IMG/VR virus record: IMGVR_UViG_2739367553_000005
Coordinates: 21,071-85,070 of that record
DNA length: 64,000 nucleotides
Direction: 5' to 3' (one strand)
DNA from: a virus
Taxonomy: Duplodnaviria; Caudoviricetes
Shown: positions 3,404 through 34,945 of the stretch, one piece after another
Numbering within the stretch: the first letter of the stretch is position 1
Layout of the letters: each line of letters opens with the position of its first letter
The notes under the pieces: generated by a model
What the model saw: the letters and a program-made list of their open reading frames with translations, nothing else
Databases searched by the model: none
What the model was told of the DNA's origin: nothing
Program-made: the position numbers and the translations under genes

Positions 3404-3614
3404 TCTTTTTCTTTCGAAATTCTTTCGGCGATTGCCTTGCAGATAACCACCACAATTGTTAATAGGATTGTGGTTCCACCTACCATATGTACTTTTGCTT
3501 TCTGTTTTACTTTTGAACAATAAATAAAATTTATTGGATCTCCTCCCAAATAATATTTGTTATTTTCCTACAATCTGATAAAATATTATTATCAAATTGA
3601 AAGGTCGTGATTTT

Positions 3615-4442
3615 ATGTTAGATGGATTCGACAAATTAGCAGAAGGAGCCGGAAAAGCTCTGAAAAACATTCCAGAACTTTATGATGACGCTCTAAAACC
3701 TTCCGCGCAAGAATCAGGAAAACTTTTGGCTCGAATACCTCGTGCAATCAATGCTGTCTTTGCTGATCTTGATAAATGGATACTAAACAAAGAATACAGC
3801 ATTGAAGAAACAAAAAAATTATTAAGTTATAAGCTTGAAAACATCTCACCCGAAAAAATCGTAACACCAGAACCATATGTTGCAATTCCAGCAATACAAG
3901 CAATTTCTTATTCAATGGATAGTAAAGAATTAAGAAACTTATATGCTAATCTTCTTGCTAAATCAATGAATATTGATACAAAAGCTTATGTTCATCCGTC
4001 ATTTGTTGAGATAATTAAACAGATGTCTCCTATTGATGCCCGAATCTTAAACGAAATGCCTTCCAATAAAACTCTTCCATATGTAAATTTGAGTTCGACA
4101 GAGTACGACTCTGAGGTGAAAACAATTAATTTAAATTTTATAAGTCGTAGATCATTTCCTTATGTTACATACATTGATTTTACAGATTATGAAACAGTAA
4201 ATTTATCTTTAGGCAATCTGTCTCGTCTCGGATTAACTGAAACACGATTTGCACAACAAGAACCAGTTCCACAAAAAATCAAAAAATCTCCTCATTATAA
4301 TCTATGTAAAACAGAATTAGAAACATTTTTGACTAATTCAAAATGGCGTTACGAAGAGCAACTCCTTTTTCTTTGTTTAACCAGCTTTGGAATGGGTTTT
4401 TATAATGTATGCATTGAATCATTTAATCCAAATATGTTATGA
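3615..4442 (+). CDS. DUF4393 / Abi-alpha family protein (candidate abortive infection)
   Basis: Motifs P..YVAIPAIQAISYSMDSKELRNLYANLLAKSM and VHPSFVEIIKQMSPIDA typical of DUF4393; C-terminal LTSFGMGFYNVC. Confidence 0.75.
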   Translation: MLDGFDKLAEGAGKALKNIPELYDDALKPSAQESGKLLARIPRAINAVFADLDKWILNKEYSIEETKKLLSYKLENISPEKIVTPEPYVAIPAIQAISYSMDSKELRNLYANLLAKSMNIDTKAYVHPSFVEIIKQMSPIDARILNEMPSNKTLPYVNLSSTEYDSEVKTINLNFISRRSFPYVTYIDFTDYETVNLSLGNLSRLGLTETRFAQQEPVPQKIKKSPHYNLCKTELETFLTNSKWRYEEQLLFLCLTSFGMGFYNVCIESFNPNML

Positions 4443-20597: not shown

Positions 20598-21131
20598 TTA
20601 TTTAAGCCTTTTTTTCTTGCAATACATATTATCTACGAACAGTTGAATAAACACTGCAACTACCATAGAAAAAAAGACAGGTATACCTATATGAATTAAC
20701 AATACTGCAATTAAAGGTATTGCTGCTTGTGTACAATAAGCAATTGATCCACACAATTTAACAGAGCCTTGGACAAACCATTTCAATATTATTATTAATA
20801 CTATGAAGTGAATTATAATCGTAATTGGCTCATATATATCTACCTGCTTTTCTCCGCTGATCAAAAACCAAAACGAAATTGTTAATATAGATTTAACAAG
20901 ATCTTTTAGTGTATCAAAAAGAAAATCTTTTATTTTTGCATTATTATCTTTAAATTTTAATACCCCAGTAGCCCAAAATAATGCCGCTACAATTTGGTAA
21001 CTACCAAGTAAAGAACTATTTTGCTCTAATTTATATTTACCAAGTAAGGTTAGTGAAATAAAAAAAATAATATCAATCAAAATATCAGTCAAAGCTACAA
21101 CTTTCTTTTTCATTCGTAATACTCCATTCAT
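20598..21131 (-). CDS. Multi-pass membrane protein (moron)
   Basis: About six hydrophobic segments; AT-rich. Confidence 0.7.
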   Translation of the reverse strand: MNGVLRMKKKVVALTDILIDIIFFISLTLLGKYKLEQNSSLLGSYQIVAALFWATGVLKFKDNNAKIKDFLFDTLKDLVKSILTISFWFLISGEKQVDIYEPITIIIHFIVLIIILKWFVQGSVKLCGSIAYCTQAAIPLIAVLLIHIGIPVFFSMVVAVFIQLFVDNMYCKKKRLK

Positions 21132-21188: not shown

Positions 21189-21259
21189 TTGGGCTGCCCG
21201 GATTCGAACCAGGAAATGCAGGAATCAAATCCTGTGCTTTACCATTTGGCAATAGCCCA
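21189..21259 (-). tRNA. tRNA-Gln(TTG)-like gene, degenerate (6-nt anticodon loop)
   Basis: TGGGCTATTGCCAAATGGTAAAGCACAGGATTTGATTCCTGCATTTCCTGGTTCGAATCCGGGCAGCCCA: TGGTAA D-loop, GGTTCGAATCC T-arm, CAGGA/TCCTG anticodon stem. Confidence 0.8.
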
Positions 21260-27156: not shown

Positions 27157-27414
27157 TTATATTCGTTCTATCCCGTATTCATAAATCGTATCACTTGGCA
27201 AATCAATTTCATCGGTCCAAAATACGCAAGTCCGACTTTCGTCAACCTGGACCTGCTGGAACAATCCATAAATATTTTTCAGATCTGCAAACTGTGCTAT
27301 GTTGCCGATGTCTTCTTTAACGTCATATAACACTTCTTTGCCATCGTCAAAAATCACTTGTAATAAATAATCATCTAATGGCTTTAATTCTTTTATTCTT
27401 GGTATCATTCCCAC
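27157..27414 (-). CDS. DUF2442 family protein (putative antitoxin)
   Basis: IKELKPLDDYLLQVIFDDG...YDVK...F.QV.VD....V.W..EIDLPSDTIYE. Confidence 0.8.
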   Translation of the reverse strand: MGMIPRIKELKPLDDYLLQVIFDDGKEVLYDVKEDIGNIAQFADLKNIYGLFQQVQVDESRTCVFWTDEIDLPSDTIYEYGIERI

Positions 27415-27439
27415 ACCTCCAGACGGGCGAAAAAGCCGC

Positions 27440-27691
27440 TTATAATGGCGGTAATTTCTTTAGATTCTGGCTATCCCACATATCTAATAATTCATTGTGA
27501 TTCTGGGACATCCACTCTTTAACAAGTTCCTGTGCTCTCCGGGGTAAATCTCCTTCTGTCATTTCCATAGTCCGCAAATCAAAGATTCCGATATGCTCAC
27601 CATACAAAGCATGTAAATGACTTGGTTCATGTTCCTTTGGTTTGAAGAACATTTTAATTACTATCCCATAGAACCTTGCTATCTCTGGCAC
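27440..27691 (-). CDS. DUF4160 family protein (putative toxin)
   Basis: GTG start, MPEIARFYGIVIKMFF..EHEPSHLHALYGE...W...N.EL...W. Confidence 0.85.
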   Translation of the reverse strand: MPEIARFYGIVIKMFFKPKEHEPSHLHALYGEHIGIFDLRTMEMTEGDLPRRAQELVKEWMSQNHNELLDMWDSQNLKKLPPL

Positions 27692-27736
27692 CTTATCAAC
27701 TCCTTTTATCATTACTTCTTGTATGGTTATATTATA

Positions 27737-28188
27737 TTCTATTATCATGTAATAGTCAATTCTATTATTGCGTAATTTTTAATTTTCTTTATATTCCATA
27801 ATCTGTCCTGGTTGACACCTGAGAAGTTTACACAAATTACATATGACTTCACAAGTAACATTCTCATTTTTTACCAACTTATAAACAGTAGCCCGATGAA
27901 TCCCATTATCTATAAGCCACTGCTTTTTTAGGCCTTTTTTATCCATCAAAATCCAAAACTTTTCAAAGTCAATAATTCCATTCTCTCCATAGTTTGCCAC
28001 TGTCTCACCGCTTTCTATTATCGTGTATCATTCTATATACAATAATATTCTAAAATCGTGTAATTGTCAACATTCTATTGTCATGTACTTTTCCAACAAG
28101 CCCAACATTTTTATTCTATTTTTGTGTAATATGTAGATATTCTATTTTCGTGTAATTTTCTATTGAAATTAATTCTATTATCGTGTAA
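27737..28188 (+). promoter_or_regulatory. Array of eight 16-bp direct repeats, consensus TTCTATTATCGTGTAA (putative operators)
   Basis: Copies at 27737, 27760, 28013, 28048, 28073, 28114, 28140 and 28173; the last sits between TTGAAA (28163) and TATAAT (28189). Confidence 0.75.
27779..28000 (-). CDS. Cro/C1-type HTH transcriptional regulator
   Basis: GIHRATVYKLVKNENVTCEVICNLCKLLRCQPGQIMEY. Confidence 0.85.
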   Translation of the reverse strand: MANYGENGIIDFEKFWILMDKKGLKKQWLIDNGIHRATVYKLVKNENVTCEVICNLCKLLRCQPGQIMEYKEN

Positions 28189-28242
28189 TATAATGATATA
28201 GCAAGCAACACAAAACAATTCAATCGAAAGGTGGTAATCACT

Positions 28243-28527
28243 ATGACAAAGACGGCTAGGAAAGAAGTAGTTAAGGCAATCGCAAAAGTATTCGAAGTTT
28301 CACCAAATAAGGTAACTCTATTAGAATCCAGCGGAAACATTGAGAGTTTCAAGAATAACGGTATGTTTGATGAGTCCGAAGAGAATTTTTCTATAAACAT
28401 CAGATACAACAATTTCTTATCAAAAGGCTATAGTGTATTGGTCAGTTGTGTTAAATCAGGAAGTAACAAAGATTACATTGCACATAGTCATACGGTTATC
28501 GAAAGTGAAGCATATGACACCATTTAA
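28243..28527 (+). CDS. Hypothetical protein, first gene of the plus-strand small-gene operon
   Basis: AAAGGTGG RBS; 94 aa. Confidence 0.7.
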   Translation: MTKTARKEVVKAIAKVFEVSPNKVTLLESSGNIESFKNNGMFDESEENFSINIRYNNFLSKGYSVLVSCVKSGSNKDYIAHSHTVIESEAYDTI

Positions 28528-28530
28528 TAA

Positions 28531-28585
28531 ATCCCCTGAAGAGTCTTTGAAGATTAAGACGAAACCGCCTGCCGGCGGTCGGGAT
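28531..28585 (+). ncRNA. Type I hammerhead ribozyme
   Basis: ATCCC-CTGAAGA-GTCTT(tgaagatt)AAGAC-GAAA-CCGCC(tgcc)GGCGG-TC-GGGAT: complete core and three perfect stems; cleavage after C28580. Confidence 0.93.
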
Positions 28586-28620
28586 ACACGCACATTACAA
28601 CCAAATAAGGAGGTTTTACA

Positions 28621-28827
28621 ATGGCAAATTTAGCACACTTATTCCACGTAGGACAGAAATTAAAAATCAGAAATGATGACTTTGATTCACTTCATAAATT
28701 CAATGATGGGATTGTAAAGGAAGCGCACGAACATCATATCATAGTAACAGAAACAAAAACAAATACAGACGGTTGGTATGAAGAAGGTCTTAACATTGAT
28801 ATGCTTTACCCTGAATACAATTTTTAG
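28621..28827 (+). CDS. Hypothetical small protein
   Basis: AAGGAGG RBS 3' of the hammerhead. Confidence 0.7.
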   Translation: MANLAHLFHVGQKLKIRNDDFDSLHKFNDGIVKEAHEHHIIVTETKTNTDGWYEEGLNIDMLYPEYNF

Positions 28828-28857: not shown

Positions 28858-29034
28858 ATGAAAACAGAACACAGGGTAGACAATTGGAATCAAAATAAAA
28901 TCTGGATCTGCAAAATCTCAAAATGCAATCACTACTACATAGGCCAGCAAGTGGGTTGCCTGAACTTACGACCGGTAAGAGTTTCAAAATCTTATTACAA
29001 GTCAATCATCTTTAATCCCAAATTTGCATATTAG
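28858..29034 (+). CDS. Hypothetical 58-aa protein (not in ORF track)
   Basis: Manual translation MKTEHRVDNWNQNKIWICKISKCNHYYIGQQ...; AAAGGAG RBS. Confidence 0.6.
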   Translation: MKTEHRVDNWNQNKIWICKISKCNHYYIGQQVGCLNLRPVRVSKSYYKSIIFNPKFAY

Positions 29035-30062: not shown

Positions 30063-30122
30063 CCTTTAATGCAGCCGGAAAAGCTCCGCAGGTCACAAGC
30101 CCTGGTAAATGCAGAGTGGAGG
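30063..30122 (+). ncRNA. Twister ribozyme (P1 type, canonical)
   Basis: CCTT-TAA-TGCA-GC-CGGA(aaagc)TCCG-CAGG-TCACAAGC-CCTG-gtaaa-TGCA-GAGTG-GAGG matches the clostridial twister pattern UAAUGCAGC...GGUYACAAGCCC...GCAGAGU. Confidence 0.88.
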
Positions 30123-33694: not shown

Positions 33695-34945
33695 ATGAAT
33701 AAAATCACTCAAATCACGAAACGCGATATAATAGATATTATAAATAATGGTATAGTAGTAGATACAGACAATATTATAAATTCAGAAATTTATGAAAATA
33801 TTTACGAAGATAAAAATTATAAAATTTGCTATCATGGCCGCTTAGATGAGATTGATTTTCTTAAGAGAATATATGATCTACAAAATATCCCATCAATGGA
33901 TTCAAGATTTTCAGATGCTGAAGGCGATATATGGCAACATACGGTTAATAATTATGATTGGGACGATGATTGGATATTTTCAGATAGTAGATTTGAATTA
34001 TTATATGGCGATGATGAAGTATTCTTAAAATTTATATGTGAAATATTCCATCCCATAGTAAGAAACGAAAGTCAACCTTGGAAAAAAATATTAAAAATAA
34101 TTAATGATCTTCTAAGAATAGATGGGTATGAACTATATGAACATAGCCATATATCTGGTAGGGCAATTTATTTTTGGAGAGAGACAGGTGAAAATTTTGT
34201 TGAGATACCGGATAATACACATTCTAAATTCTATGAACTAAAATTAATTGGAGAAGGTTCTTATGCAAAGGTTTTTAAATACAGAAATGATACTTATCAA
34301 AAGATGTTTGTTATAAAAAGAGCAAAATCAGACTTAGATGATAAAGAATTGGAAAGATTTAAGCGAGAATATGAGCAGATGAAATCTCTGAATTCACCAT
34401 ACATAGTTGAAGTCTATGGATATGACGATAGTAAGCATGAATATTCAATGGAATACATGGATTTTACATTAGATAAATATATTTCAACCAATAATGGTAA
34501 CCTTACTTTTAAACAACGAAAAGGAATTTCTATGCAGATATTAAGAGCATTTAAATATATACATTCTAAAGAATTACTTCATCGTGATATTTGTCCCAAA
34601 AACATTTTAGTAAAAAAATATGATGATGTTGATGTATTTAAAGTATCTGATTTTGGTTTAGTTAAGATTCCAAATAGTAACCTAACATCACTAAATACAG
34701 AATATAAAGGATATTTTAATGATCCTGAATTAAGATTAGAAGGCTTTGCCTCATATGGAATAGTACATGAAATATACGCCTTAACTAGAGTAATATATTT
34801 TGTAATGACAGGTAAAACCAATACAGATAAAATTCTCAATGAATCCCTTAAAAGTTTTGTATTAAAAGGATTGAATCCAGATAAAAGATTACGATTTCAA
34901 AACATCGAACAACTTACTAAGGCATTTTCAGATATAACAGAATAA
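33695..34945 (+). CDS. AbiJ-N-terminal-domain / Ser-Thr protein kinase fusion
   Basis: N-terminal GRLDEIDFLKRIYDL...DSRF.DAEGDIWQH..NN.DW; kinase motifs IGEGSYAKV, VIKR, HRDICPKNILV, DFG. Confidence 0.85.
   Translation: MNKITQITKRDIIDIINNGIVVDTDNIINSEIYENIYEDKNYKICYHGRLDEIDFLKRIYDLQNIPSMDSRFSDAEGDIWQHTVNNYDWDDDWIFSDSRFELLYGDDEVFLKFICEIFHPIVRNESQPWKKILKIINDLLRIDGYELYEHSHISGRAIYFWRETGENFVEIPDNTHSKFYELKLIGEGSYAKVFKYRNDTYQKMFVIKRAKSDLDDKELERFKREYEQMKSLNSPYIVEVYGYDDSKHEYSMEYMDFTLDKYISTNNGNLTFKQRKGISMQILRAFKYIHSKELLHRDICPKNILVKKYDDVDVFKVSDFGLVKIPNSNLTSLNTEYKGYFNDPELRLEGFASYGIVHEIYALTRVIYFVMTGKTNTDKILNESLKSFVLKGLNPDKRLRFQNIEQLTKAFSDITE

Follow-up and report, generated by a model that had tools for sequence, protein, structure and literature searches.

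A type I hammerhead ribozyme of a conserved phage subfamily between two small genes of a putatively repressor-controlled prophage operon

The window, that is, the whole stretch of viral DNA analysed here (64,000 nucleotides; positions 21,071 to 85,070 of IMG/VR record IMGVR_UViG_2739367553_000005), is largely prophage, encoding a terminase, a tail protein, integrases, DNA methyltransferases and a DnaB-like helicase, and most of its prophage genes lie on the - strand. The hammerhead motif described below sits within a short series of small genes on the + strand (ORF1 to ORF4 and others). The genes and features around it are as follows.

27779..28000 (-): divergent Cro/C1-type HTH gene, 73 aa (Pfam HTH_26, E = 5e-12)
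28013..28191 (+): region ahead of ORF1, with a promoter-like site (28163-28191) and six operator-like repeats of 16 nt
28243..28527 (+): ORF1, 94 aa, the upstream cistron, with the Shine-Dalgarno sequence GAAAGGTGG preceding its ATG and the stop codon TAA at 28525-28527
28607-28613 (+): Shine-Dalgarno sequence AAGGAGG, ahead of the ORF2 ATG
28621-28827 (+): ORF2, 68 aa, the downstream cistron
28858..29034 (+): ORF3, 58 aa
29049..29100 (+): divergent twister-P1-like motif after ORF3 (RF03160, 34.4 bits, E = 4e-5)
30063..30122 (+): twister-P1-like candidate ribozyme, where the + strand gene row ends (RF03160, 62.4 bits, E = 4e-13)

No significant Pfam, PHROG or NCBIfam match was found for ORF1 to ORF5 where these were searched. 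ORF2 has homologues in seven clusters (78-91% identity), all without a functional name, and a related phage contig (L069/L263) has retained it downstream of the same hammerhead; homologues of ORF3 (91-95% identity) are present in L069 and L034, both of which adjoin hammerheads of the family described below. The contig L069/L263 keeps the order of HTH gene, hammerhead, ORF2, ORF3 and twister, and its hammerhead differs from that of the window in two loops only. The 16-nt repeats upstream of ORF1 have the consensus TTCTATTATCGTGTAA, which is matched ten times in the window compared with 1.3 expected matches; six copies are located between the HTH gene and ORF1, one of these overlapping the promoter-like site, and two are located beyond the HTH gene at 27737-27775. 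The repeats look like an operator array, and the divergent Cro/C1-type HTH protein is likely to be the repressor of the operon. Within the hammerhead gene row, no terminator-like site was found on the + strand. Directly downstream of the HTH gene, there is also a DUF2442/DUF4160 gene pair (27157-27748, -), which is toxin-antitoxin-like and has two operator-like repeats in front of it.

The motif between ORF1 and ORF2 extends from 28531 to 28585 on the + strand, and its elements, together with the two nucleotides preceding it, are as follows.

28529..28530 (+): conserved AA directly 5' of stem I; in the window, part of a second TAA
28531-28535 (+): stem I 5' strand, AUCCC, with 5 of 5 pairs to 28581-28585
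28536-28542 (+): core C3 U4 G5 A6 N7(A) G8 A9, CUGAAGA, as read from the sequence
28543-28560 (+): stem II hairpin, GUCUU, 8-nt loop II and AAGAC, 5 bp, with G10.1-C11.1 closing
28561-28564 (+): core G12 A13 A14 A15.1, GAAA, of which A28564 pairs with U28579
28565-28578 (+): stem III hairpin, CCGCC, UGCC and GGCGG, 5 bp and a 4-nt loop
28579-28580 (+): U16.1 and C17, with the predicted scissile bond at 28580/28581 by standard hammerhead numbering
28581-28585 (+): stem I 3' strand, GGGAU, which would be the 5'-OH end of the downstream RNA

When the sequence is read directly, every invariant nucleotide of the hammerhead core is found in place (28536-28542, 28561-28564, 28579 and C17 at 28580), in agreement with the preliminary description of this DNA, which had claimed a complete core. 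The same description had listed three paired 5-bp stems, and both the sequence and the minimum free energy (MFE) fold bear this out, with stem III gaining the additional pair A15.1-U16.1 and the helix lengths thus being 5, 5 and 5+1 bp. The cut that it had placed after C28580 is the one predicted from the standard numbering. The topology is that of type I, in which stem I is open, carrying the 5' and 3' ends, and stems II and III are closed by loops. Folding of the 55-mer by ViennaRNA gave exactly the three-stem hammerhead junction as the MFE structure (-19.1 kcal/mol, z = -2.3), and all three stems persisted when the motif was folded in a 125-nt context. With a strict type I descriptor, which demands the core, G10.1-C11.1, H17, no fewer than 5 bp in stem I and no fewer than 4 bp in each of stems II and III, 28531-28585 was the sole match on both strands of the window, and there were no matches in 300 dinucleotide-preserving shuffles; a relaxed descriptor likewise gave no matches in 100 shuffles. 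By sequence and structure, 28531-28585 is a genuine type I hammerhead ribozyme and is very probably catalytically competent.

The comparison with the Rfam models, which had been suggested as a check on the motif, gave a divided result. The two hammerhead models concerned align with the motif end to end over 28531-28585, but both remain below their gathering scores: when a 255-nt stretch was searched in E-value mode, the best Rfam model, RAGATH-1-hammerhead (RF03152), scored 29.2 bits compared with a gathering score of 56.3, and Hammerhead_1 (RF00163) scored 19.2 bits compared with 34, a match that is non-significant at genome scale. At gathering thresholds, Rfam reported no hammerhead in the whole window and only a tRNA. 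The designation as a textbook type I hammerhead is, therefore, sustained with respect to all sequence and structure criteria, but not with respect to the Rfam models, none of which reaches its gathering score. It should be considered here that a gathering score is the threshold of the curators and not a structural criterion, and that none of 20 scanned relatives of the family described below (loci among L005-L081) reached the gathering score of any Rfam hammerhead model. Because all 20 relatives fall short as well, the shortfall suggests a gap in the seeds of the models rather than a defect in the sequence. The motif had been described as invisible to annotation based on open reading frames, which is true, and the curated Rfam thresholds miss it too; since they miss the window and all 20 relatives, routine annotation under-reports this subfamily.

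The alignments to the two models also indicate where the motif stands among known hammerheads. It resembles Hammerhead_1 in topology and core, with model positions 1-45 aligning end to end, and differs from it in the long loops II and III, which the model treats as insertions. With RAGATH-1 it has in common the type I order, an A-rich tract 5' of stem I and a long G+C-rich stem III. RAGATH-1, however, has a one-pair stem II and an extra upstream hairpin, whereas stem II in the window is a regular 5-bp hairpin. Membership in RAGATH-1 was therefore rejected, as both the minimal stem II of about 1 bp and the extra hairpin 5' of stem I are absent. A RAGATH-1-type match found upstream is weak, lies inside the coding sequence of ORF1 and is not conserved among the relatives.

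Relatives of the window hammerhead were found both by similarity and by pattern. When a 2.1-kb query was compared by blastn with 50,697 phage genomes, the hammerhead itself was the only matching part, and the matches were two Agathobaculum phages and two crAss-like phages that are otherwise unrelated to the window. A 31-nt search pattern, consisting of part of stem I, the core and stem II, was found in 93 IMG/VR stretches, and 100 of the 103 pattern matches complete a hammerhead in the flanking sequence, that is, a hairpin, U-H and a strand complementary to the five upstream nucleotides. All relatives keep the same type I order of elements. In a one-genome-per-species scan, at least 119 stretches had the pattern, and the source taxa among the matches listed include Lachnospiraceae, Oscillospiraceae, other Clostridia, Bacteroidales, Patescibacteria, Elusimicrobia, Melainabacteria and others. 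Among the pooled matches listed, 180 of 240 distinct copies were strictly complete hammerheads (5 of 5 pairs in stem I, a stem III of at least 4 bp and H17), compared with 4 in a control in which the stem I strand was taken 10 nt further upstream. Thus, judging from sequence, the window hammerhead belongs to a conserved subfamily that occurs commonly among the phages and prophages of anaerobic bacteria, those of the gut included. Two matches of the relaxed pattern among genome contigs, L179:6440 and L205, were set aside as false positives, since they lie in a conserved protein-coding gene (Cytophagaceae, Flavobacteriales) and have no stem II pairing. Three other copies (L064:10614-10644, L086 and L016) have an intact core and stem II, but the sequence following stem III does not complement the 5' strand of stem I; these may be decayed or variant hammerheads. 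The copy in L064 comes after a homologue of ORF4 of the window (45% identity).

The helices of the family vary in a manner that preserves pairing. In an alignment of 70 distinct copies (A2), 97.4% of the cells were paired, compared with 26-46% when the partners were slid by 1-3 columns, and the covariation score was 0.484, compared with 0.03-0.06 when slid; pairs in which both nucleotides had changed numbered three in stem I and four in stem III. The outer three pairs of stem I covary among AU, UA, CG and GC types, with 99.4% of the cells paired, and 60 different stem I strand sequences are present in the pooled family among the matches listed. When the four inner positions of stem II were freed in the pattern, all four pairs were formed in 121 of 122 copies, with six sets of pairs. 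The stem III hairpin ranges from 9 to 78 nt in length. As the search patterns fixed the core and loop II and not the helices, the conservation of the core and loop II is partly by construction. N7 is A or U in the relatives, and H17 in the 180 complete members listed is C in 168, U in 10 and A in 2, the absence of G at this position being due to the filter, which excluded it. A covariance model built from A2 gave the window hammerhead 76.9 bits. With this model, no second convincing copy was found in the 5.6-Mb genome, and the pattern search also gave a single copy; three further matches to the model (18-23 bits) were rejected, as they were without stem III or core bases.

These comparative data already refute the reading that the motif is a chance resemblance without a biological role, to which we assign practically no probability. 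The scores of the Rfam models, which are below their thresholds, would be in line with such a resemblance, but the descriptor found nothing in 300 shuffled sequences, the homologues with covarying helices number in the hundreds, and the site clusters with the only twister-like motifs of the genome. The same data bear on the possibility that selection acts on the DNA, with the near-invariant block of about 40 nt derived from the hammerhead serving as a homology anchor at the boundaries of gene cassettes, by which unrelated phages swap single genes, and with RNA cleavage being incidental or lost in the window copy. In favour of this, the block is the only DNA common to the window prophage and the otherwise unrelated phages, the flanking genes vary between loci, both here and in earlier work (PMC3088659), and a few copies, such as L064/L086 and L016, have a non-complementary stem I. 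Pairing at the RNA level, however, would be superfluous for an anchor of DNA, whereas all three stems show compensatory changes and H17 is kept; moreover, the element always has the same orientation with respect to the ORFs on either side, and the window copy is without a core defect. Selection on the DNA is, therefore, an improbable explanation, and we favour a role for the hammerhead in the cleavage of RNA.

The placement of the hammerhead relative to its neighbouring genes is conserved as well. In the window, the TAA of ORF1 at 28525-28527 is separated by 3 nt from the motif beginning at 28531, just as had been noted. The 40 nt that had been given as the distance to the next start codon hold when they are counted from the predicted cut, but it is 35 nt from the end of the motif to the ATG at 28621. 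In the family, upstream ORFs of 50 codons or more have their stop codon at a distance of -3 to +4 nt from stem I in 107 of the 123 cases listed, and in 103 of the 139 cases listed, a start codon with a Shine-Dalgarno sequence ahead of it follows the hammerhead at 20-49 nt; the window fits both rules. From this conserved placement of stops and starts, the element may be regarded as an intercistronic punctuation mark.

Conservation also extends to unpaired nucleotides. Besides the open 5-bp stem I, the subfamily consensus to which the window copy belongs includes an A at position -2 from stem I and a loop II of the sequence KGAARAUU, although the loop II variant of the window itself is rare, being found in 4 of the 180 complete members listed, namely, the window and three others. 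Position -2 (28529 in the window) is A in 173 of the 180 complete members listed, and position -1 is A or G in 165 of them. These preferences hold with or without a stop codon covering the two positions, and A(-2) is far commoner than stop overlap explains. By analogy with extended hammerheads, A(-2) and loop II are possible partners in a tertiary contact between stem I and loop II, a contact of the kind that allows rapid cleavage at physiological Mg2+. Across the family, no covariation was found between loop II variants and the stem I flanks or N7, and no pseudoknot was found. A is also enriched at position +2 after stem I (126 of the 180 complete members listed).

Such features could be taken to mean that the ribozyme is regulated, with terminating ribosomes or a factor binding to loop II tuning the cleavage, so that it acts as a switch for the expression of ORF2 and ORF3. 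Since the stop codon of the ORF abuts stem I, as it abuts or overlaps it in most of the family, a terminating ribosome would cover stem I; furthermore, pairing alone would not call for so strong a conservation of loop II and A(-2). Against this, no alternative conserved structure was found, and the conservation of loop II is in part a product of the search patterns and would equally be expected from a tertiary contact. We therefore consider regulated cleavage to be unlikely. A hairpin that might form at the 5' end after cleavage, by refolding of the stem I 3' strand with downstream sequence, was also considered and rejected; it was present in 76 of the 180 members listed, compared with 62 in a reversed-strand control, and it is absent in the window.

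The two twister-like motifs lie 0.5 and 1.5 kb downstream of the hammerhead, share its strand and gene row, and are the only RF03160 matches in the 5.6-Mb genome, both being below the gathering score of 67.2. Taking the hammerhead, the motifs and the genes together, we consider it quite likely, judging from the sequence features of the locus, that the hammerhead cuts a polycistronic prophage mRNA between ORF1 and ORF2 and that, in an operon under the control of the repressor, the twisters join it in making separate pieces. From the motif and its fold, which were read and computed directly, and from its conservation, covariation and genomic placement, we infer transcription, cleavage in vivo and an effect on expression in the following manner. 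The + strand prophage operon, from ORF1 to about 30122, would be transcribed from the promoter overlapped by the operator array for the Cro/C1-type repressor, and the operon RNA, once de-repressed, would fold into the three-way junction, in which the 2'-OH of C28580 would attack the adjacent phosphate. Because the type I topology leaves the ribozyme body, namely stems II and III, at the 3' end of the ORF1 message, this mRNA would then terminate in that body and carry a 2',3'-cyclic phosphate. The downstream RNA would start with 5'-OH GGGAU, a short and largely unstructured leader of 40 nt before the ORF2 start, the Shine-Dalgarno sequence included. The first twister may end the ORF2-ORF3 message, and the second may trim the 3' end of the gene row, so that the pieces of the transcript would be ORF1, ORF2-ORF3 and ORF4 onwards, which could differ in stability and translation. 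A 5'-OH cleavage product can be degraded in Firmicutes by RNase J1, as for glmS, and the effect on ORF2-ORF3 could, therefore, be either protection or RNase J-dependent decay.

The cleavage ends that would be produced at the locus could also be viewed as the very purpose of the cleavage. Leaving both ribozyme bodies on the adjacent fragments, the hammerhead and the first twister would then release an almost ribozyme-free, bicistronic ORF2-ORF3 RNA of about 473 nt (28581 to about 29053), which the RtcB of the host would join or circularise, the gain being ligatable ends, 5'-OH and 2',3'-cyclic phosphate, and not the separation of messages. A type I hammerhead leaves just 5 nt on its 3' product and the cleavage site of a type P1 twister is close to the 5' end of the twister, and from the two cut positions it follows that the ORF2-ORF3 fragment would carry both of the end chemistries for RtcB. 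The genome encodes one RtcB (379 bits), the presence of which says little because RtcB is a common housekeeping repair enzyme, and the order of hammerhead, ORF2, ORF3 and twister is kept in L263. On the other hand, most members of the family occur singly, no partner ribozyme having been detected in their vicinity, and Perreault et al. sought spliced or circular products of clustered prophage hammerheads and found none (PMC3088659). If true, it would be the natural counterpart of engineered ribozyme-assisted RNA circularisation, by which a phage makes a stable message; we regard it as very improbable and retain the separation of messages as the preferred role.

The preferred role is in accordance with earlier reports. 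Clustered hammerheads flanking prophage genes cleave in vitro and in E. coli, and the processing of polycistronic RNA was proposed as the role of prophage hammerheads (Perreault et al. 2011, PMC3088659); bacterial twister and hammerhead ribozymes have common gene neighbourhoods, and reviews repeat the proposal of RNA processing while calling the biology of bacterial hammerheads elusive (PMC6765202; PMC10085705). The window copy resembles the hammerheads of Perreault et al. in its full core, in its location between co-directional small phage genes of variable identity and in the clustering of ribozymes, and differs in its source from the tested arrays, which were those of Clostridium scindens, Azorhizobium and Agrobacterium (PMC3088659). 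It is also like the neighbourhoods of Roth 2014 and Weinberg 2015/2017, as far as these are presented in PMC6765202 and PMC10085705, in that a hammerhead and twisters occur within 1.6 kb in a phage-derived region. Compared with that account of them, the window operon is the same in kind and adds an identifiable dedicated repressor and an operator array. Since 2011, hammerheads have been known to occur between prophage genes, and the window copy adds no principle beyond that. Its value lies in the putatively repressor-controlled operon, which holds all three small self-cleaving ribozyme candidates detected in its genome, one of cultivable size, and which thus offers a compact test system for the role of intercistronic self-cleavage in phage. 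Furthermore, the subfamily, being abundant and extending across phyla, exposes a gap in the coverage of Rfam.

Several other loci with family hammerheads also contain more than one ribozyme. In L046, a pistol ribozyme above the Rfam threshold (2234-2301, +; 62.6 bits) lies about 300 nt upstream of the family hammerhead (2602-2632). Nine loci (L044, L049, L067, L081, L117, L146, L158, L182 and L221) have two family hammerheads each, on the same strand and 100-1500 nt apart, and in several of these the pair brackets a single small gene. Elsewhere in the window, a tRNA gene (21189-21259, -; 41.5 bits) lies within the region of prophage structural genes, and there are two candidate prophage-borne defence genes, one encoding an AbiJ N-terminal domain fused to a Ser/Thr protein kinase (33695-34945, +) and the other being an Abi_alpha gene (3597-4442, +).
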